A stretch of 64,000 nucleotides of DNA from a virus: positions 32,001-96,000 of IMG/VR virus record IMGVR_UViG_3300009503_000018; one strand, given 5' to 3'. Below, one piece after another: positions 2,872 through 59,679 of the stretch (position 1 is its first letter; the number at the start of each line of letters is the position of its first letter). Both the position numbers and the translations under genes were made by a program. The notes beneath the pieces were generated by a model. The model saw only the letters and a list, made by a program, of their open reading frames with translations, had not been told where the DNA came from and ran no database searches.

Positions 2872-3101
2872 TCTATTGACGATTGTTCCCACTCATACCA
2901 TTCTTTGGCATCAGCAACTAAATCTTTAACTTTTTCTAACAACTGTTGATCAGTCAGCAAAGCCCAATTACCGAGTTTTTTCAAGACTCTGACGGCATAC
3001 CATTTGAGGTCTGGTGACGAGCGTTCCCATGTATACCATTCGTCGGCATCAGTGACCAAATCTTTAACGCGCCAGCGCAGTCCTTCAAGGTCATTTTCCA
3101 T
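2817..3101 (-). CDS. Hypothetical protein with two internal repeats
   Basis: VKDLVTDADEWYTWERSSPDLKWYAVRVLK and VKDLVADAKEWYEWEQSSIDIKWYATRILK. Confidence 0.7.
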   Translation of the reverse strand: MENDLEGLRWRVKDLVTDADEWYTWERSSPDLKWYAVRVLKKLGNWALLTDQQLLEKVKDLVADAKEWYEWEQSSIDIKWYATRILKAFQNWVS

Positions 3102-3299
3102 TTATTCCTCCGAACGACGGACTAGTTCAAACCAGTTTCCGCGAGCGTATCCAAATGCGCGACCGTCCGTTGTCTCGGCATACGCGGTTTTGTTTTCTTC
3201 ATCGTAAAAAAGCAGCGCCGCATATTCATTTTTTGATAACCGCCGGTCGAGCGTTGTCATGAGCGCTCGTTCGACGGGGAATCGAATGATTTTTGACAC
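3102..3299 (-). CDS. Hypothetical protein
   Basis: AAGGAG RBS plus GTG start, 65 aa. Confidence 0.6.
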   Translation of the reverse strand: MSKIIRFPVERALMTTLDRRLSKNEYAALLFYDEENKTAYAETTDGRAFGYARGNWFELVRRSEE

Positions 3300-3369
3300 G
3301 TGATTTCTCCTTTACAATCGAGTATACGGAAAAGGAACCCATGTATGACAAATACGCCATCTTCGGAAG

Positions 3370-4149
3370 TCACAATTCCAATTTTTCCAGCACGGGCATG
3401 AGGACGTAAGTGAAGCGCGGATCGCGCGACCCACGGATAACCACGGGACTGGCGTCGTCCGTGATCCCAATCGAAATGATATCGTATGCCGCATGGAGGC
3501 GCAACACATCGGTCAGGTGGCGCGTGTCGAACGCAATGGTGAGCGGCCTTGCGTCGTAACGTATCGGCAGCGCGCTGGCTTGCGGATTCGCGTCCGGCAC
3601 AACGTCGAGGCGGCCGTGGTCGAAGTGCAAACGGACGGTTGGGGAGTGCTTGGGATAGAGACGATATAAGGCGTCGAGGAACTCTTCGCACGGGACCTCA
3701 GCGGTTATACCATGAGGCTTTGGGATGGCCTCATGGTACGGAAAGGTGACATCGCGCAGCACGGGCAAGACGATGATGGAAGTGCCGTCGGTCGTCCGCA
3801 CGTCAAGGCCGCGGTCGGTCAGCGCAAGGGTCATTTGAGCGTCCGACCGGCCACCCACGAGTCGCTCGTGTAGGTCGGCCAGCGGCTTGCGCGGGATAAC
3901 GAGCCCGGGCGGTAGATCGACGGCCTCGCAGTCCCGTTCAACGACGGCGAGCCGATACCCATCGCTGGCGACCAGGCGCAGCGCGCAGGGCGGTTGGGTC
4001 TCTATGAGGACGGTGCTCAGATAGGGACGTGCCGGATCACGCCCCGCAGCGAACAGGGTCCGGTCTAGCATTTCGCGGAACGTGCGTGCGACAATCCGTA
4101 CCGTAGGGGCCGCGTCCGTACTGTTACTGAGCGTCGTTATTTTTGACAC
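3370..4149 (-). CDS. dnaN: DNA polymerase III beta-clamp-like protein, domains II-III only
   Basis: RPYLSTVLIE...LRLVASDGYRLA, FPYHEAIP, IAFDTRHLTDVL and C-terminal YVLMPV are DnaN signatures; 259 aa versus about 370 aa for full DnaN. Confidence 0.8.
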   Translation of the reverse strand: MSKITTLSNSTDAAPTVRIVARTFREMLDRTLFAAGRDPARPYLSTVLIETQPPCALRLVASDGYRLAVVERDCEAVDLPPGLVIPRKPLADLHERLVGGRSDAQMTLALTDRGLDVRTTDGTSIIVLPVLRDVTFPYHEAIPKPHGITAEVPCEEFLDALYRLYPKHSPTVRLHFDHGRLDVVPDANPQASALPIRYDARPLTIAFDTRHLTDVLRLHAAYDIISIGITDDASPVVIRGSRDPRFTYVLMPVLEKLEL

Positions 4150-23034: not shown

Positions 23035-23121
23035 TGAAAGTTACATATTAGCTGACACAAAATAGTATAATCTGAATCATAACTAATTGTACACAAAATT
23101 GCACATAAAATGTTGGTTAGT

Positions 23122-23205
23122 AGCGGCGGAGGGACTCGAACCCCCACGGATATTAATTCCGCCGGTTTTTGAGACCGGAGCGTCTGCCAATTCCGCCACG
23201 CCGCC
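23122..23205 (-). tRNA. tRNA-Leu(CAA)
   Basis: GGCGGCG/CGCCGCT acceptor, D-arm GCGGAATTGGCAGACGC, CCGGT-CT-CAA-AA-ACCGG, long variable arm, GGTTCGAGTCC; CCA not encoded. Confidence 0.92.
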
Positions 23206-30668: not shown

Positions 30669-33071
30669 TCAAGATTCAGCGTCAGAATAATTTCTCCTTT
30701 CTGGAACTTTATTGTCCCACAAAGGATTCACATCAAAAACTTGACCACGATGTTGATGTCTCCCGTTCGTATTAGCATCACGAATAAAGCCACGGTCCAT
30801 AAGATACAGTAAGGCATTTTCAATAACGCGTCCGTGTTTTTTGGTGCAACGAACCGCATCTTGTTTGGTGATTTGCTTTTTATTATTACGCGCGATATAT
30901 AACAGAATATTTCTCGCAACGTCGTGGGACACTGAAGATTGCATTTGTTCATGGGCAGCAATCGCGTGAGAAATAAAATATGCGCCCAACTCTCTTGCAT
31001 TTGAGAATGTCCGTGCGTCGATTTCCCACTCCCACGGACACCCCTCGATGATGTTTTCAGCCATGTGAAATAAACCAGCGATACGAATAACGGCGCCCGC
31101 GAGTTTGGCTCCCCACTCTTTGAGTTCATCGCAGGTTGCTAAGACCCCGCCAGGTCGACACTGAGTATTAATCCATGTCCGAAACTCATCTAACAGCTCT
31201 TTTGCCTCCGACGATAGTGTCAAAACGTGCGGGACATCAGTTTCTCCTTCTATTGATTCTCGATATGGAATACTCAATAAGGCCCGAACGTTTTTTCGAT
31301 ATACGTCGAAAACGCGAAATGGGATTGTTTGTGGATTCATATTCTCTTTAAATTCTTTTTCTACCATACTATACAAGAACCGAGCATATAATCCACGGTA
31401 CGCCAAACCCGTTTTATCCAAAAGCCCTCGAAGTGATTTCGTCTGCGTGCAAATACCAATAGTCAAAGCGGGTTTTCGAATATCTTCTTCCCGCCGAGAT
31501 ATTCTATTGACTCGAATATCGTCGCCCGCATGACCCTTTAAATACACGTCAATATCAGGCTCTCCGTTGGTTTGGTAACGTCCATTCATCATAGCGAAGA
31601 TATCGCCTTCAGCACTCAAAATAGCCAATCGACCACTTTGTTCATAGAGCTTTGTTTTAATGGCTTGCGGCGTAATATCATCACCGATAAGGCTTGGAAG
31701 GATAGCCTTTTTTTCAAGTTCGGCGATTTTTTCGAGAATTTTGGTTGTTTCTTCGAGTATAGATGGTTCGTCTATACCCGCTTTCGCAGTCCGAGACCGG
31801 AGTGAGCGATACCGTGATTCAAGTAAATCCATATGGGCTTTGATTTTGCGAATTTCACTTTCTGCTCGTGTCTTCAGATACGACTCGTGTTCTTGTATTA
31901 CTTCGACCATATGCCGAAATACAACACCTTTGCGACTTCCCGGCGGTGCGCACACTACCGTAAACAAATTCAGCGGTTCACTCCAATCGCTTGTCACAAA
32001 TACGCGAACTTTTCGAGCACATCCTGTCGCTAATACTGAAAGAGCGCACATCGACGCCATGTCTACTGGAGTCTGTGTCGTTTCAGCTACGGCTTCAACA
32101 TAATTCTTTACCCATCCAGGAAAAACATGTGTCGGAAATGCCGGTAAATTGAGTTCGTCAAAGGCGACTGGGGCTTGCCATTCAACCGTTTCTACCGGTT
32201 GTTCATACGGACGACGAACATTTTTCCAGCTCGTTCCTGGAGCAAACTTGCGATACGCCCACTGGACTTGTTTGATTGCCTCGGCATGAGGATACGGCGG
32301 ATTACAATTATCGGCCGCTTGAAGAATCCAAGTCAAAGCCGTATCATATGAAAAATCTTGCGCTCGTAACGAGGCGGCGAGTCGAGTAATGGCATGATTG
32401 CGTTCGCCTTCCGGGACTCCGCACAAAGCACGAACAACATTGAAACGTTCTGATTCTCTTCCTTGCTCCAAGGAGGCGGCCGAAATCAGCGCAAGTACCC
32501 ATTCAGGAGCTTGAGCGACTGGGACTTCCCACGGTGCAGAGTCTTCGCACCACTCGTAATTTCCATTCGCATTCCGTGATGGTGGAAGAACCGCTTGTCC
32601 ACCTTCTCCGCGAACATCAATACCGATACCAGGAAACAATTTCGCTTTGGTCGGAATAGTAATAGTCGAAGGGCATTGAAAACAAATATGCCGTCCGTCG
32701 CTTCCGGTTTTTGCAATCGGGGTTGGCGGGATATCGCCATATTTTTTGATCAGTTCTACCCATTTTTCCACGCCCCCATCTTTAGTGTCAATATCGACCA
32801 GAAAAAGATTAGAAGCTTTGCCTGTCGCTACTCCAATATTGGAATTAGGCCAATAGTCCTTAAACCAAGCAACAATTTCTGTTGGTTCTGTCGTCGCTTT
32901 GAGCTGCCATTCATTAAAACGGGGATGTTTTCCTGGACTAAGACATTCGGATTTTCTCCAACACGTGCATTTTCCGTTTACACACGCATGGTTTGGAATA
33001 ATTCTCCACCCTAGTGTTGCATAGTACAGCGCGAATTCTAATGTTGTTTTTGGAATTTTAAAATCAGCCAT
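30669..33071 (-). CDS. Bifunctional primase-polymerase (Prim-Pol/AEP, primase C-terminal) fused to a DUF3987/YfjI-like domain
   Basis: GKHP, NIGVATG, VDIDTK, KTGSDGRH, DVRGEGGQAVLPPS, GERNHAI; APPGSRKG, DDITPQAI, SAEGD, LKGHAGD, GLYARFL. Confidence 0.85.
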   Translation of the reverse strand: MADFKIPKTTLEFALYYATLGWRIIPNHACVNGKCTCWRKSECLSPGKHPRFNEWQLKATTEPTEIVAWFKDYWPNSNIGVATGKASNLFLVDIDTKDGGVEKWVELIKKYGDIPPTPIAKTGSDGRHICFQCPSTITIPTKAKLFPGIGIDVRGEGGQAVLPPSRNANGNYEWCEDSAPWEVPVAQAPEWVLALISAASLEQGRESERFNVVRALCGVPEGERNHAITRLAASLRAQDFSYDTALTWILQAADNCNPPYPHAEAIKQVQWAYRKFAPGTSWKNVRRPYEQPVETVEWQAPVAFDELNLPAFPTHVFPGWVKNYVEAVAETTQTPVDMASMCALSVLATGCARKVRVFVTSDWSEPLNLFTVVCAPPGSRKGVVFRHMVEVIQEHESYLKTRAESEIRKIKAHMDLLESRYRSLRSRTAKAGIDEPSILEETTKILEKIAELEKKAILPSLIGDDITPQAIKTKLYEQSGRLAILSAEGDIFAMMNGRYQTNGEPDIDVYLKGHAGDDIRVNRISRREEDIRKPALTIGICTQTKSLRGLLDKTGLAYRGLYARFLYSMVEKEFKENMNPQTIPFRVFDVYRKNVRALLSIPYRESIEGETDVPHVLTLSSEAKELLDEFRTWINTQCRPGGVLATCDELKEWGAKLAGAVIRIAGLFHMAENIIEGCPWEWEIDARTFSNARELGAYFISHAIAAHEQMQSSVSHDVARNILLYIARNNKKQITKQDAVRCTKKHGRVIENALLYLMDRGFIRDANTNGRHQHRGQVFDVNPLWDNKVPERRNYSDAES

Positions 33072-49462: not shown

Positions 49463-51496
49463 TTAATGTTCTCCTGAAAGGTCATATTCTTCGATATGGG
49501 TAACATGATTTTGTTTCACGGCTCGAATTTCTTTATCGAATCTCCCGCTATCGCGAACACTTCGATGGTTCGTAATAACAAGAACGGTCCTACCATCGCC
49601 GGTAAGATGTTCGAGAAGTTTGCACATTTGTTCTTCGCCCCAAGTATCCAAATTCGCAAATGGCTCATCCAGTAGCAACAAATTTACATTCGCATCTGCT
49701 TGTTCCATTGACAGATCTCCGAAAGCTCCAGTAATGGCCAAACTCAATGCGGCTTTTTCACCTCCTGAATAAAACCGTATCGGGACGTGTTTTTTATTTC
49801 CGTCTTTGACCAAAATGTCAAGTTCGGTTTTTACTCCTTTGCCATCTGCTTTTGGAACTTCTGTAACCAATTCTGCGTGAACTTCTCCATCCGTCAGGAT
49901 AGACAAATATTTAGCTAGTGAATTATTAAACGCGTCGCGACTCGAATGAATTTTGAACGATTTAAAACCTTTATCTCCAATAAGTTCTTCGCATCGCTCA
50001 ATATACTTAATGCTTTTTTCATTTTTCTCATTAATAGTAATTTGGTGCTGTAATTGCTTGTTAAGTTTTTCATATTGAGACCGGGAATTTTCGGCGGTTT
50101 CAATCTGTGTTTTCAACTGTGTATACGCTTGTGTAAGATGGAGTTGCTCAGCCAAGAGATCTTTCTTTTCCTCCTCAATTTTTTCCGGAATATGAACACC
50201 GGTCCCGATACACTCTTTTAGAGTTTTGAGTTGTTCTACTACCTTTTGTAGGTCGTTGCTTGCTGTTTGTAGAAGGGCGTGATTTGCCGTCATGTCAGCT
50301 TCATACGCCCGCATATCTCGTAATACTCCCTGTGTACTTTTCTGTGTAGAAAGCATTTGTTGGAGCGCGTCTTTTAGAGCGTCTCTCTTTTTCGTCAACT
50401 CTTTAATGGTCCGTGTATATTTCGTATGCAAACTTTGGCGCAACTCATCAGAAACCGCTTGTTCACACTCCGCACATTCCCCTTTCAAAGATTCCACATG
50501 TTGTAGCCGCATCTCCGCCTGCCGTACTTCCGCGTTTGCCATTGCATGTTTATTTTGGAGATCGCAGACTTGTGCATTAATCGCCTCAACTTCTGCTTCA
50601 AGCTGTGCCGACGTTTTAAATGTCGAAAACCGAAAACTAAAATCTTCTGCCTTTTGGCTGCACGTTTTCGCTAATTGCTGAACGCGATCTTTTAATAGAC
50701 GCTCTTTAGTTTGTAGTTCTGCAATAAGTCGAAGTTTCTTTGCCTCTTCTTCCAACGAGGCAAGTTCGTCTGCAATAACACGCAGTCGTGCTTGTTGTTC
50801 TTGGAGTTCCCGCGACCATTGAGCAATTTCTTCGGGTGCGACCAGTGTTTTTGCCATCGCGGCAACTTGCGCTTGAAGTGTTGTTACAACCCCTTGCCCT
50901 TTCAGCAATTCTTGACGCAGGGATTTTCTCCACTCGCTCGCCACTTTGATATATTTGTCGCACTCGTCGAGATTCAAGATATTTCCAAAAATAGCTTTCC
51001 GCTCTTTGTCAGTACGTGTAATAAAATCAGCTATTTTCGATTGTGGAATATACGCTTGATTGACGAATTGGTCATATGTCATTCGAATATGATCCCGAAT
51101 GATTTTTTTGGTATCCGTATTTCGAGCGCCTTTTTCTGGTTGCCAGTTTTGGCCGTCCCACCGATACAACGTCCAATGCGTGCCTTCCTTCGGATGCTGC
51201 CGTGCATAAACAACATAATACGGCACACCAGCATCGTCAATAAACGAAACTGCTATGCGACATCCCTGGTCACGTCGAACCGTATTAATGACGGTATCGT
51301 GAGTTGAACCGTCGTCGTTTTCTTCAAATAAAGCAGTCGTAATGGCTTTAAAAATAGAACTTTTTCCCGCCCCAGACGAAATACCACGATCACGATTTTC
51401 GCCGGTGACGAGATATAACTTCCCGGGCTCAAAATCGAGGACTTGTTTGTCCCCATAAGACCGAAACCCCTCAATTTCGACCGAACGAATGATCAT
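49463..51496 (-). CDS. sbcC: SbcC/Rad50/gp46-like SMC ATPase
   Basis: GAGKSSI, coiled coil with CAEC hook, YSGGEK, LLLDEPF, ITNH. Confidence 0.92.
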   Translation of the reverse strand: MIIRSVEIEGFRSYGDKQVLDFEPGKLYLVTGENRDRGISSGAGKSSIFKAITTALFEENDDGSTHDTVINTVRRDQGCRIAVSFIDDAGVPYYVVYARQHPKEGTHWTLYRWDGQNWQPEKGARNTDTKKIIRDHIRMTYDQFVNQAYIPQSKIADFITRTDKERKAIFGNILNLDECDKYIKVASEWRKSLRQELLKGQGVVTTLQAQVAAMAKTLVAPEEIAQWSRELQEQQARLRVIADELASLEEEAKKLRLIAELQTKERLLKDRVQQLAKTCSQKAEDFSFRFSTFKTSAQLEAEVEAINAQVCDLQNKHAMANAEVRQAEMRLQHVESLKGECAECEQAVSDELRQSLHTKYTRTIKELTKKRDALKDALQQMLSTQKSTQGVLRDMRAYEADMTANHALLQTASNDLQKVVEQLKTLKECIGTGVHIPEKIEEEKKDLLAEQLHLTQAYTQLKTQIETAENSRSQYEKLNKQLQHQITINEKNEKSIKYIERCEELIGDKGFKSFKIHSSRDAFNNSLAKYLSILTDGEVHAELVTEVPKADGKGVKTELDILVKDGNKKHVPIRFYSGGEKAALSLAITGAFGDLSMEQADANVNLLLLDEPFANLDTWGEEQMCKLLEHLTGDGRTVLVITNHRSVRDSGRFDKEIRAVKQNHVTHIEEYDLSGEH

Positions 51497-51628
51497 TGCT
51501 TGGTGACGACATCCTCAGTCAATGACAAGGACTTCTCAGGTTAACCTGAAGGCTCCGTCCAAGCCGAAGGATATTTATCGCTGCATTCACATCTCTGTCA
51601 AGTAGTAAACTACACGAACACGAGTGTA
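51483..51628 (-). ncRNA. omegaRNA/reRNA A of the resident TnpB (scaffold ends GTCGTCAC at 51503; guide CAAGCAATGATCATTCGTTC)
   Basis: Overlaps the tnpB 3' end; three hairpins GGCTT/GAGCC, TCAGG/CCTGA, GTCCT/AGGAT; GACG/CGTC pseudoknot; 5' end uncertain. Confidence 0.7.
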
Positions 51629-52640
51629 TTCGTTCTGACAATGTTTTTTGTCGAACCAATCCACATTGTGAACAGGTACTTGACGTGCCACGAGGTGGGA
51701 CCTTGACGAATCGGCGTCCAGCCTCTTCCGCTTTGACACCAAGAATGTCGAGGAATCGTGACCATGCAGCATCTGTTATAGATTTAGATTTATTGAGCCC
51801 GCTCGTTGACTTGTGTGTCATTTCACGCACATCTAAATCCTCAACGACGATCATTGCATTCTCAGAAACAATTCGATGGGCAAGTTTATGCTGAAAATCA
51901 TTTCGTTGATTTGTTATTTTCGCATATAACCTGGCGAGGTATGCTTTCGCCTTTTCTCGACGCTTCGAGCCTCGATTCTTTCGACTAAGCGCTCGCTGAG
52001 CTGCGCTCAGCCGCTCTTCAGTTTTTCGATACCATCGTGGATTCTCGATTTTTTCACCGGTAGACAACGTGGCAAAACTCTCTAAACCCATATCAATACC
52101 AATTTCTGCGGTTGCTTCAGGGTATGGTTTGGCAGGAACATCAGCGCAGGAAAATATCGCATACCATTTTCCTGCTCGACGCTTGAGGGTGAGCATCTTT
52201 GGTTTTCCAGTAATTGGTCGGTGAAACCGAATCCGAACACACCCAATACCACCAAGACGGATTTTCTTCGGGCTAATCAAACGAAAGCCAATATCCTGAG
52301 GCCATGTCAGGCTATTATAACGATCTCGTCCTTTGAACCTTGGATAACCAGGCTTTTCGCCATTTTTTACACGCCCGAAGAATTGTTGAAATGCAAAATC
52401 GACACGGTAAATTACCTGTTGAAGAACCTGCGCATAAATATTCGCGAATTCAGGTCGTTCTTGTTTGACAACGGGAAGTTCTTTTGATTGTTCAAAAAAG
52501 CCAATACGCACACCATGTTTCCAGGCTTCGCGCTCTTTGATCGCCGCATTGTACAATTCACGGCAATATCCAAGCCACAGGTCTAATTGTTGTGCTTGTA
52601 CCTTGGTTGGATATATGCGATATTTAAATGCTCTATGCAT
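51519..52640 (-). CDS. tnpB: RNA-guided endonuclease TnpB, catalytic residues intact
   Basis: RAFKYRIYPT HTH; RuvC-I GIDMG, RuvC-II VVEDL, Zn finger CSQCG...CSC, RuvC-III DRDVNAAINI; start chosen at ATG 52640. Confidence 0.95.
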   Translation of the reverse strand: MHRAFKYRIYPTKVQAQQLDLWLGYCRELYNAAIKEREAWKHGVRIGFFEQSKELPVVKQERPEFANIYAQVLQQVIYRVDFAFQQFFGRVKNGEKPGYPRFKGRDRYNSLTWPQDIGFRLISPKKIRLGGIGCVRIRFHRPITGKPKMLTLKRRAGKWYAIFSCADVPAKPYPEATAEIGIDMGLESFATLSTGEKIENPRWYRKTEERLSAAQRALSRKNRGSKRREKAKAYLARLYAKITNQRNDFQHKLAHRIVSENAMIVVEDLDVREMTHKSTSGLNKSKSITDAAWSRFLDILGVKAEEAGRRFVKVPPRGTSSTCSQCGLVRQKTLSERIHSCSCSLLLDRDVNAAINILRLGRSLQVNLRSPCH

Positions 52641-52668
52641 TAATAGACATATTAGGCTACGTACTTTA

Positions 52669-52692
52669 TAGTAGCGGCGGAGGGACTCGAAC
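52669..52692 (-). repeat. 24-nt exact copy of the tRNA-Leu 3' end
   Basis: tagtagcggcggagggactcgaac at 52669..52692 equals 23118..23141. Confidence 0.9.
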
Positions 52693-52941
52693 TCATTGCT
52701 TGGTATGCATTTCAAAAGCGAATGCTACTGTATACCCTTCAACTCGTTGTTCGTCAAGTACTGAATTTAACAGTTCTTTCGTCGGACATACAACGACTCG
52801 TCTTTTCTCTATACCTTCTTTCTGAAGGACCGCGACATATGAAACAGCGTTATGCTGTATAGATTTATGCACCGATAAAAGAAGATCTGCAAACTCATCA
52901 ACGGAAACTGGTTTTTCTATTTCTATATGTTTTCTATTCAT
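52693..52941 (-). CDS. Hypothetical protein between sbcD and sbcC
   Basis: 82 aa, coupled to sbcD; its TGA lies in the direct repeat. Confidence 0.65.
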   Translation of the reverse strand: MNRKHIEIEKPVSVDEFADLLLSVHKSIQHNAVSYVAVLQKEGIEKRRVVVCPTKELLNSVLDEQRVEGYTVAFAFEMHTKQ

Positions 52942-54014
52942 ATTGTATCAATCCGTCGTTCAATTTCTTTTAAATACTCCAGCAATTCCGGGTCATTATC
53001 GACTTGCTGCACGTAAGAAAGTAATTGCTTTCCAATTGGAATTCTTTTGTTGATTTTTGCATTGACATTTAAGGGAGTTGTCGCTTTCGCCTGCATACGG
53101 ACCTTTGCCGAAGCCGCCCCCATCGCCCGCAGGCGTTTCTCTAGTTCTCGTCGAACAGACACAGGAGCTTGACCATTATGTTCTACAACCATAAATACAA
53201 CATTGCCCACAACGTTTTTCTCAATTTGGAGCATTTCTTCTATATCACCAGCCCAAGTTTTCACAACATTAATGATTTTAGGAAAAGGCGATTCAACAAA
53301 TTCAACTGCAATCGACGATTCAACGTCGACAATAAGAGCCCCTTTCGCACCTTGATCGCCGTCTTGGACGCGCTCTAATGGCGTTCCAATATGCCAGGCA
53401 GGGACATTTTCAAATTTGAGTTCTTGACGTAAGTGAATATGCCCTCCCAGCACGTAGGATAATTCAGAACGGTCAATGGTTTCTCGGACAATTCCTGTTG
53501 TGGCGGCATATTTTCCATCTCGTGAATGTCCGATGACGGAATCATGGAAAAACAGAACATTAATATCGTGCGGACTTAAGTCATACTCGAACTGTGTGTA
53601 ACCATAGGGCAAAAAGTGCAATAACAGCCCATTAAAGTCTAGGACACCGGGCTTGTCAAACACAACAATTTTATCGTCGTCATTCCATATTTGTACGCCG
53701 TTATAACTGTGCCATTGTCCTGTCTTGTCATACAAATCGTGGTTGCCAAGAAGACACGCAATACGAACATTGTCGCGGCGAAATCGGTTGAGCCGCTCGT
53801 CCGCTAAGTCCCGCATCCATGCTGGTGGTCTGTGAGGTTTAAAGCGGTCTCCACCAAAAATTACTGCGTCGGCCTTTTTTTGTAAAGCAAGTTCTCGAAC
53901 CCAGTCCCACACATTCAGCGTATCAAGCAACCGGCTGTTAAAACCGGTTTTCTGGTCAATATGACCTTCGCTATATTCGCCGATGTGACCATCGCTAAAC
54001 ACGACGAGTTTCAT
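52938..54014 (-). CDS. sbcD: SbcD/Mre11/gp47-like nuclease
   Basis: FSDGHI, FGGDRF, LGNHD, FFHDS, GGHIH, HIGTP. Confidence 0.92.
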   Translation of the reverse strand: MKLVVFSDGHIGEYSEGHIDQKTGFNSRLLDTLNVWDWVRELALQKKADAVIFGGDRFKPHRPPAWMRDLADERLNRFRRDNVRIACLLGNHDLYDKTGQWHSYNGVQIWNDDDKIVVFDKPGVLDFNGLLLHFLPYGYTQFEYDLSPHDINVLFFHDSVIGHSRDGKYAATTGIVRETIDRSELSYVLGGHIHLRQELKFENVPAWHIGTPLERVQDGDQGAKGALIVDVESSIAVEFVESPFPKIINVVKTWAGDIEEMLQIEKNVVGNVVFMVVEHNGQAPVSVRRELEKRLRAMGAASAKVRMQAKATTPLNVNAKINKRIPIGKQLLSYVQQVDNDPELLEYLKEIERRIDTI

Positions 54015-58603: not shown

Positions 58604-58816
58604 TTAACCAACGGCTACCCGATCAGCCACTTCGGTCTTGACCATCGAGAAAATATAAGTGGCCAAAAGACGAAGCCGATCGCTCTGACTCTTGGTCTGA
58701 GTCAGACCCCGAACGCCCAGCTCTTCGAGATCGCGAAGGAGAGCACGGGTTCTCTGTCGCGCACGGGGATGTAGTGCGACACCTTCGACTGTGCTTGGGA
58801 CTAGCTTATTAGCCAT
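58604..58816 (-). CDS. Hypothetical protein
   Basis: AAGGAGGT RBS; MANKLVPSTVEG, 70 aa. Confidence 0.65.
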   Translation of the reverse strand: MANKLVPSTVEGVALHPRARQRTRALLRDLEELGVRGLTQTKSQSDRLRLLATYIFSMVKTEVADRVAVG

Positions 58817-58820
58817 TTCG

Positions 58821-58895
58821 GACCTCCTTTTTGAAATTTCGTGACGGCACCCCAACAGGGCTTCTCGGGATAACCCCGACGGCTCCGTCCGAGCC
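58821..58895 (-). ncRNA. Orphan omegaRNA C (diverged scaffold 58841..58895, guide GAAATTTCAAAAAGGAGGTC)
   Basis: GGCTCGGACGGAGCCGTCGGGGTTATCCCGAGAAGCCCTGTTGGGGTGCCGTCAC, collinear with scaffold A with structure-preserving changes. Confidence 0.65.
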
Positions 58896-59034
58896 TAAGC
58901 TTAATACCGTGACGACATCCTCAGTCAATGACAAGGACTTCTCAGGTTAACCTGAAGGCTCCGTCCAAGCCTGAGTATATTTATCGCTGCATTCACATCT
59001 CTGTCAAGTAGTAGACCACACAAACACGAGTGTA
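58896..59034 (-). ncRNA. Orphan omegaRNA B / tnpB 3' relic (spacer GGTATTAAGCTTA)
   Basis: 58909..59034 matches 51503..51628 at 120/126 nt; first 63 nt identical. Confidence 0.75.
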
Positions 59035-59068
59035 ATCCACCGCCGCTTTTGATCAATCATTCTGCCAC

Positions 59069-59251
59069 TTAACCCAATTCATTATTTACGGGAACAATCC
59101 GCCAATTCAAACTAGGCATTCTCTCTCGTACATCGTCTAAGCACACTAAGATCTCCTCTAAGCTATGAGGCTCACCAAAGGGTCTCCATTCACTATACTG
59201 CTCATCTTTTAGACTCCATTCAAGAATCCACTTATCTAGTATACTGCTCAT
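59069..59251 (-). CDS. Divergent paralog-family protein
   Basis: KWILEW...PHSLEEIL...NWRI resembles 5913..6462. Confidence 0.55.
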   Translation of the reverse strand: MSSILDKWILEWSLKDEQYSEWRPFGEPHSLEEILVCLDDVRERMPSLNWRIVPVNNELG

Positions 59252-59642
59252 CTTTTAGACTCCGTTCAAGAATTCATTTATCCATCTGTGCGACCGACGA
59301 ACGCGCTTTCCGTTATCAACGATGTAGACCATACAAACGCTTCTCTGAGTAGTGAATGTGACACAGCCACAGATAGCCGCCCGGTGTTGGCATGCCACAC
59401 GTCCCGTCGCTGCGACAACCCGCCATGTCGCATACCGGCACGAACTGCGTCACCGCCTTACACTTTGGACACCCTTCGACGATATCGTTCAAATTAAACG
59501 GGTTTGGCGCCTTGAGAATTTTGGCCGTAGGCAATAGCGTGTCACACGCCCGACAACGACTATGGCGCGGTGTCTGCATTTTCACACCTCGCGCGGATCA
59601 ATGCTGCTCATTTTTTAGACCCCATTCAAAAATCCACTTATC
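59194..59642. repeat. Three copies of a 39-43-bp gene-start segment
   Basis: 59194..59236, 59240..59282, 59604..59642; 3 mismatches each versus copy 1. Confidence 0.9.
59316..59585 (-). CDS. Zn-finger-like protein
   Basis: CRAC...CPKC...CDMAGC...LCHIH. Confidence 0.6.
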   Translation of the reverse strand: MKMQTPRHSRCRACDTLLPTAKILKAPNPFNLNDIVEGCPKCKAVTQFVPVCDMAGCRSDGTCGMPTPGGYLWLCHIHYSEKRLYGLHR

Positions 59643-59679
59643 CATTTTTGCGACGACCTCTTAGTCAATTAAGGACTTC

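Follow-up and report, generated by a model that had tools for sequence, protein, structure and literature searches.

How does a tnpB gene with no transposase beside it, and with only one of the two ends of a transposon, come to lie at the joint between two phage genes, and what might it do there? The question is raised by a 64-kb stretch (the window; positions 32,001 to 96,000) within the IMG/VR virus record IMGVR_UViG_3300009503_000018, which is 139.5 kb long and 77% complete. In the window, a cassette made of tnpB and of the right end that would specify its guide RNA (the omega-RNA) sits between two genes of a DNA-repair cluster, with a small open reading frame (ORF) of 82 amino acids (ORF82) on one side and sbcC on the other. 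Our reading, to which we give about even weight and which is drawn from sequence comparison, is that this left-end-less cassette spreads by a non-canonical copying process anchored at its right end, and that it may be poised to cut and convert the empty alleles of sibling phages. Coordinates refer to the window unless another contig is named.

An insertion with target duplication between ORF82 and sbcC

Siblings of this phage were found by an SbcC protein search. Seven contigs (L007 and L180-L185), recovered from several samples of JGI, ENA and SRA, match the window at 97-99% identity on either flank of the cassette and are empty at the site in question, so that the sbcC site is occupied in one of eight sibling contigs. 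The contigs compared here have among their source samples JGI 3300035183, 3300036768, 3300054965 and 3300063276, ENA ERZ27247220 and SRR11727984. In all seven empty forms, ORF82 and sbcC overlap by ATGA and a 12-mer at this junction is present in a single copy; between -66 and +157 of the junction, L184 does not differ from the window at all. In the window itself, the same 12-mer occurs exactly twice on the minus strand, the two copies being 1200 bp apart, where shuffled sequences would lead one to expect 0.02 occurrences. The left copy (52693-52704) ends in the TGA of ORF82 and the right copy (51493-51504) contains the ATG of sbcC. The seven natural empty sites establish that an insertion took place and that it duplicated its target, and they set aside a chance repeat. 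The preliminary description of this DNA had proposed an insertion with a 12-nt duplication that restores both genes and had called for relatives with a contiguous empty site; the two 12-mers do supply the ORF82 stop and the sbcC start, and the seven ATGA junctions are the relatives in question. When IMG/VR was scanned by exact pattern, neither the empty junction nor the right end gave a match, and a metagenome scan of the same kind returned a single match, the sibling contig L018.

Mosaic patches of single-nucleotide polymorphisms are present in ORF82 among the siblings and are not centred on the insertion. The window and L007 differ from the six other siblings by a cluster of eight substitutions in 28 nt (52759-52786, 66-93 nt ahead of the stop of ORF82), which indicates mosaic recombination inside this ORF.

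The TnpB protein, its omega-RNA and its predicted guide

The tnpB gene (51519-52640, minus strand) is intact and codes for a protein of 373 amino acids carrying the Pfam families HTH_OrfB_IS605, OrfB_IS605 and Cas12f1-like_TNB. The RuvC residues D183, E267 and D350 and the four cysteines of the zinc finger are invariant in a comparison with 20 homologues, and the protein is homologous to the solved structures of ISDra2 TnpB (E 4e-45). Its nearest phage relatives by protein, which are 46-49% identical, belong to Thermus phages.

The omega-RNA scaffold (51503-51582, minus strand) overlaps the 3' end of tnpB and ends with GTCAC at 51503; these coordinates delimit its 3' portion only. The GTCAC terminus is common to the window copy, to the copies carried by the contigs L010 and L179 and to a remnant at 58909 together with its sibling version in L018, and relatives at 70% protein identity end at the same point. 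The last 80 nt form three hairpins, and comparison with relatives reveals compensatory changes in 7 of the 17 pairs, as would be expected of an omega-RNA scaffold. The fold by itself is unremarkable (z -1.35), and an Rfam scan of 50500-53500 returned no omega-RNA family and one sub-threshold chance match.

Since the terminus is fixed at 51503 by independent contexts, the guide would be the 20 nt read from 51502 to 51483 (minus strand), exactly as first proposed. This predicted guide runs through the right copy of the 12-mer and into sbcC codons 1-5, the ATG occupying guide positions 7-9. The earlier suggestion that it would match the uninterrupted junction holds in natural alleles: the match is 20/20 in L184, with an identical 5' flank, and the other six empty forms show one or two differences. 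L180, L181 and L185 have a single difference at +16, L182 and L183 a single one at +1 (synonymous, ACC to ACT), and L007 has two, at -3 (synonymous, CAT to CAC, giving ACAC for ATAC) and at +17. At the occupied left junction, as had also been noted, just 10 nt of match to the guide are left (52702-52693, guide positions 1-10 in the register of the right end, preceded by ATAC at 52706-52703), and the window holds no other site with three or fewer mismatches. With only these 10 nt of target beside the left flank, the carrier would be protected. The GTCAC terminus must presumably be non-permissive as a target-adjacent motif (TAM), because the carrier would otherwise cut itself and the element has survived.

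The TAM is the weakest link of this argument. In the empty forms, the junction is preceded by ATAC at the sbcC site and by GTAC at the site of the L010 copy, and the TAM is probably a short motif containing the TAC common to both. Published TAMs do not exceed 5 nt (PMC10278001). The motifs read from canonical relatives (TTAT-like for L023 and L024, something else for L083 and L084) were set aside as not transferable; related genomes are at most 49% identical, and no canonical relative is close enough for a TAM to be derived from it. The sibling variants in the seed and in the presumed TAM hint at escape, but their excess is not significant: the TAM-plus-guide window contains 4 variable sites among siblings where 1.3 would be expected (uncorrected P 0.036), a number that is also reached by about 6% of 25-nt windows.

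Absence of a left end and relation to a tRNA-Leu-site copy

Comparison with closely related copies delimits the cassette on its other side. The L010 copy, which is intact, is 97.6% identical to the window copy in DNA and 96% in protein; in this genome, the corresponding locus is found 2.5 kb before the window and carries no insertion. The L179 copy (97% DNA identity) carries a frameshift before the zinc finger and retains an ORF of 345 amino acids. What the window copy shares with the L010 copy begins just 1 nt ahead of the tnpB ATG. Between the window and L179 copies, the shared sequence adds a leader of 28 nt (52641-52668, minus strand), which is identical in L179, absent from L010 and unique in the genome, and nothing beyond it that could be a left end. 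Copies that are 96-98% identical thus have in common no left end with a subterminal hairpin abutting a TAM. Among canonical relatives from other phages, the shared left end amounts to about 96-98 nt.

The duplications are equally foreign to the canonical pathway, since IS200/IS605 transposition makes no target duplication and 12 nt are duplicated at the sbcC site and 17 nt, imperfectly, in L010. In the latter, the 17 nt after GTCAC (guide positions 1-17) are repeated with two mismatches directly before the tnpB ATG, and this left repeat runs leftward into sequence that is homologous but diverged to an unusual degree, with 5 differences over 32 nt, one of them at the base 2 nt from the junction. 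The sbcC-site and L010 duplications both start at or next to guide position 1 and both are shorter than the guide. A scan of 65 more distant viral TnpB loci gave guide-duplication word lengths equal to those of the control, save for the window (12), L010 (9) and L095 (a coordinate artefact), from which it follows that the guide duplication belongs to the left-end-less subfamily and is not family-wide. The insert consists of tnpB and its omega-RNA right end, has neither an IS200/IS605 left end nor tnpA, and is not a canonical IS200/IS605 element.

Ahead of the leader, the insert at the sbcC site contains a 24-nt fragment of a tRNA gene (52669-52692, minus strand). It is an exact copy of 23141-23118, from the T-loop to the 2-nt trailer of tRNA-Leu(CAA), which is encoded with this trailer at 23118-23205 (minus strand), and it has the genomic form with two trailer bases and not the CCA-tailed form. 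The site directly 3' of tRNA-Leu (between 23118 and 23117) is empty in the window and occupied by the cassette in the sibling L179, which matches this genome through the complete tRNA-Leu and then continues unbroken into the same leader and cassette. The association of the 24-nt fragment with the leader at sbcC, and of the complete tRNA with the same leader and the cassette in L179, indicates that the cassette at sbcC probably descends from one at the tRNA-Leu site. Most likely, the sbcC copy was templated on the tRNA-Leu-site copy of a sibling and the copying ran 24 nt into the tRNA gene; this direction is preferred because the reverse one needs two extra events.

Two other routes from the tRNA-Leu site were considered and put aside. 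Off-target homing is unlikely, because the guide presumed for the tRNA-Leu site shares its first 5 nt with the sbcC site (9 of 20 positions overall), which is too little for TnpB. RNA-mediated copying is only remotely possible, as the phage record holds no reverse transcriptase and the trailer is genomic and not CCA.

These junctions also bear on a more conventional history, in which TnpA inserted a canonical IS605 or IS1341 element at a TAM, and this element lost its left end and tnpA by later deletion in place. Relatives of the cassette are indeed canonical elements with left ends or tnpA remnants, and progressive 5' loss is seen at the remnant near 58.9 kb, of which 242 nt are left in L018 and 129 nt in the window. 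Deletion in place would nevertheless leave unexplained both the 12-nt target duplication, which is measured against seven empty alleles, and the tRNA-Leu fragment joined to the leader of the tRNA-Leu-site copy, and we consider it very unlikely. An assembly artefact appears more improbable still. The insertion or the tRNA-Leu-site arrangement would then be a chimeric join through short repeats, a concern that is raised by data consisting throughout of metagenomic contigs and by a contig, L179, that stops 1 nt after the right end. The left junction of the window, however, passes from a stop codon into the middle of a tRNA and shares no repeat on which a false join could have been made, repeats of 24 and 12 nt look too short for false joins at usual assembly k-mers, and independent samples agree on the empty and occupied forms.

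How the cassette may have reached the sbcC site

A constant right boundary, a variable left boundary, a piece of donor flank and a short duplication together point to a one-sided copying process. The copy of the tRNA-Leu-site cassette would have stopped precisely at the terminus of the right end; in the opposite direction, copying would have run 52 nt past the tnpB ATG (the 28-nt leader and 24 nt of tRNA), and joining at 10-12 nt downstream of the right-hand entry point would have produced the duplication. The process could have been break repair or copy-choice, both independent of TnpA, in the course of recombination-dependent phage replication. Selection would retain only the products that preserve the ORF82 stop and the sbcC start, and a viable insertion into the ATGA overlap must duplicate at least 4 nt. 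Break repair or copy-choice would need no extra enzyme, and we rank it slightly ahead of a TnpA acting in trans and of the repair of a cut made by TnpB.

The last of these possibilities would make the mobility itself RNA-guided and independent of TnpA. A cut distal to the TAM would be repaired by copying the cassette from its right end inward, and the TAM-proximal part of the target (10-17 nt, never more than the guide) would stay on the left and be duplicated. Synthesis from the right end would stop early, so that the variable 5' boundary could take in donor flank, and the duplication would be a cleavage footprint. Repair of a TnpB cut explains why the duplications do not exceed the guide in length. 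It presupposes, however, that the guide matched the site beforehand, and we regard this mechanism as unlikely.

Several observations weigh against right-end-anchored copying or against the conversion of empty siblings that we propose to follow from it. The right-end boundary is exact at every site, unlike what random break repair would leave, and is a better fit to an end-specific enzyme. The crossover to be expected, one within the 8 nt of microhomology that the tRNA-Leu-site donor has with the sbcC site, predicts 2 nt more than the window contains, and the tRNA-Leu-site copy has a right flank of only 1 nt in L179. The TAM inference is weakened in that CTA, and not TAC, stands in register at the tRNA-Leu site, and in that the AC shared at the junctions could be mere microhomology with the right-end terminus. 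No Y1 TnpA (PF01797) is encoded in the 139.5-kb record, whose 77% completeness leaves room for a TnpA elsewhere in the genome or in the host. Near tnpB there is no sigma-70-like promoter or terminator above chance and no clear ribosome-binding site. Finally, with one sibling of eight occupied, the cassette has not swept.

The exact right end is best accommodated by a one-ended Y1 (HUH) TnpA acting in trans. Such an enzyme would cut the right-end terminus and a TAC-like target site and join them, and the other junction would be closed by illegitimate recombination, carrying along the tRNA piece and duplicating 10-17 nt of target; the later functions of the cassette would be those of a homing gene, as set out below. 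In agreement with this, TAC lies directly 5' of the junction in the empty sbcC and L010 sites, a Y1_Tnp gene, missing at that place in this genome, is found about 2.6 kb from the cassette on the sibling contig L179 (gene and cassette tnpB together: L179:1-402 and 3001-4134), and in some relatives that are 70% identical a remnant of a Y1 tnpA persists directly ahead of tnpB. The lack of a Y1_Tnp gene in the present record and of TAC in register at the tRNA-Leu site argue otherwise, as does the fact that a one-ended TnpA does not predict duplications limited to the length of the guide. To our knowledge, one-ended transfer is undocumented for IS200/IS605 TnpA. On balance, we find a one-ended TnpA improbable.

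Proposed present function of the cassette

Under right-end-anchored copying, the cassette now in place would be transcribed together with the sbcD-ORF82-sbcC operon, and because no promoter or terminator stands out near tnpB, the gene is probably read through from sbcD. TnpB would process the transcript into an omega-RNA with a guide of 16-20 nt reading into the first sbcC codons. During co-infection, the complex would cut siblings with an uninterrupted junction, within these same codons, and the phage recombination machinery would repair the break from the occupied genome, thereby copying the cassette in. The outcome would be homing, or a gene drive with marker exclusion.

How tnpB would be translated is less apparent, no Shine-Dalgarno-like sequence being present ahead of it. 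A mini-ORF of 5 codons (52633-52650, minus strand) starts 10 nt before the tnpB ATG and overlaps this ATG in another frame. The insertion also has a possible cost: it separates sbcC from ORF82, so that their translational coupling is lost, and the scaffold and guide cover the start region of sbcC. The insertion may not be as harmless as the preliminary description took it to be.

A less active role is conceivable. The cassette could be a passive or decaying passenger, brought in by illegitimate recombination and nearly neutral, whose TnpB is inactive in this host or cuts unrelated competitors. In favour of a passenger are the occupancy of one sibling in eight, the frameshift or truncation of other copies, the lack of a promoter and a ribosome-binding site of its own and the absence of a clear co-conversion tract around the insertion. 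It is harder to reconcile with an intact ORF in which all catalytic and zinc-binding residues are present, with a scaffold conserved through compensatory changes, and with a guide in exact register with an existing empty allele of the same phage population. Moreover, the closeness of the two intact copies (96% identity in protein, about 98% in DNA), which occupy different loci, speaks for recent spread. We therefore doubt that the cassette is a mere passenger. Taken together, the cassette is found at four loci: the copies of the sbcC site and of L010 are intact, that of L179 has a frameshift and the one at 58.9 kb is truncated, and these states fit the invasion-and-decay cycle of homing elements.

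Right-end remnants in and near the window

The truncated copy (58909-59037, minus strand) is a 5'-truncated remnant that is 95% identical to the cassette and has the same GTCAC terminus followed by a different flank. Its 129 nt correspond to 242 nt in L018, the 5' deletion having gone further in the window. An older and more diverged right-end remnant (58841-58900, minus strand) follows it in tandem and also ends with GTCAC, 24 nt before the ATG of a gene starting at 58816. The two remnants (58841-59037) are thus arranged head to tail, in such a way that the 'guide' of the first one is the tail of an older tnpB and that of the second one covers the ribosome-binding site of the gene starting at 58816; L018 is without 8 nt between them. 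The tandem could result from simple decay, or could supply the resident TnpB with additional guides.

About 2.3 kb before the window (G000:C1:29510-29690), some 180 nt without an ORF end in a hairpin followed by GTATGTCAG. This segment, which resembles the right end of another TnpB subfamily (L076 ends with GTGTCAG), interrupts the loop of a terminator-like hairpin; the sibling L010 does not have it.

Gene neighbourhood

Upstream of the cassette, a gene coding for an SbcD/Mre11-like phosphoesterase (52938-54014, minus strand), identified by Pfam and analogous to gp47, is followed by ORF82 (52693-52941, minus strand), which has no Pfam family and is kept in all eight siblings. Downstream, sbcC (49463-51496, minus strand) codes for an SbcC/Rad50-like ATPase of 677 amino acids, the analogue of gp46, recognized by Pfam and by protein search. 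In the sibling L184 (3001-5061), SbcC is 686 amino acids long. Distant relatives, with SbcC proteins 52-54% identical, are without ORF82 altogether. Relatives of SbcC in IMG/VR were limited to one distant locus, and a blastn search of the locus against 50,697 phage records gave no match. Elsewhere in the window, a unit of 42-54 nt is repeated several times upstream of small ORFs (59195-59293 and 59601-59654, minus strand) and is found again in the sibling L018; it may be a promoter or another regulatory element of the phage.

Comparison with known TnpB elements and homing genes

In TnpB systems, the guide is whatever flanks the right end of the element, so that the empty site is the target (PMC8612924; 10.1101/2023.03.14.532601). 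The phage cassette has in common with the IS200/IS605 TnpB elements (ISDra2; the IS1341 group) a TnpB with RuvC and zinc-finger motifs and an omega-RNA lying over the tnpB 3' end and the right end. In these elements, TnpB protects its transposon by cutting the vacated site. In contrast to them, the phage cassette has no left end or subterminal left hairpin and no TnpA in the record, it is accompanied by a 12-nt target duplication and by 24 nt of the flank of its previous site, and its copies share just the stretch from the ATG to the right end.

In its location, the cassette resembles the free-standing homing genes of T4-like phages (Seg, Mob; 'intronless homing'), which are likewise found between conserved replication and recombination genes that they leave unbroken. 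The likeness extends to its presence or absence among near-identical phages (1 occupied, 7 empty, 97-99% identity) and to the expected cutting of the allele without the gene, followed by copying in at co-infection (PMC13565253). Unlike Seg and Mob, the phage cassette would recognise its target by a guide RNA and a TAM and not by protein contacts, and would distinguish self from non-self by interruption of the target, as in intron homing, and not by flanking substitutions.

A third comparison is offered by the TnpB drive in multicopy plasmids ('non-restorative homing'), where element-free copies are cut and IS605 copies take over without TnpA (PMC11870625), and TnpB-driven conversion was proposed for phages in a 2026 review (PMC13565253). 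In the plasmids, a complete insertion sequence had been placed by transposition, whereas here the carrier is a phage of lytic type and the element seemingly moved without a left end. One-ended transposition of IS91/ISCR elements and interrupted gap repair of P elements also leave one end constant and the other variable, with flank carried along or sequence truncated. Their resemblance to the phage cassette is one of pattern only. In a full-text search of the literature, we found no description of a cassette that lacks a left end and moves from locus to locus with its right end exact, nor of a TnpB cassette combining carried donor flank, target duplication and matched natural empty alleles.

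These observations bear on the means by which TnpB-only elements, which are very common, spread in the absence of a transposase, and on phage-borne copies as homing genes. The locus and its siblings provide a natural test set, in which one cassette is present at four loci in intact, frameshifted and truncated forms, together with empty alleles that include seed and presumed-TAM variants and with evidence of a move between loci that took place without a left end and left a target duplication. Should the mobility prove to be RNA-guided, it would show a natural way in which transposon-borne TnpB could give rise to free-standing homing genes guided by RNA and to tandem scaffold-guide arrays. In its parts, the cassette is that of an IS200/IS605 TnpB element; the life style proposed for it would be, by analogy, that of a free-standing phage homing gene and equally that of the plasmid TnpB gene drive.

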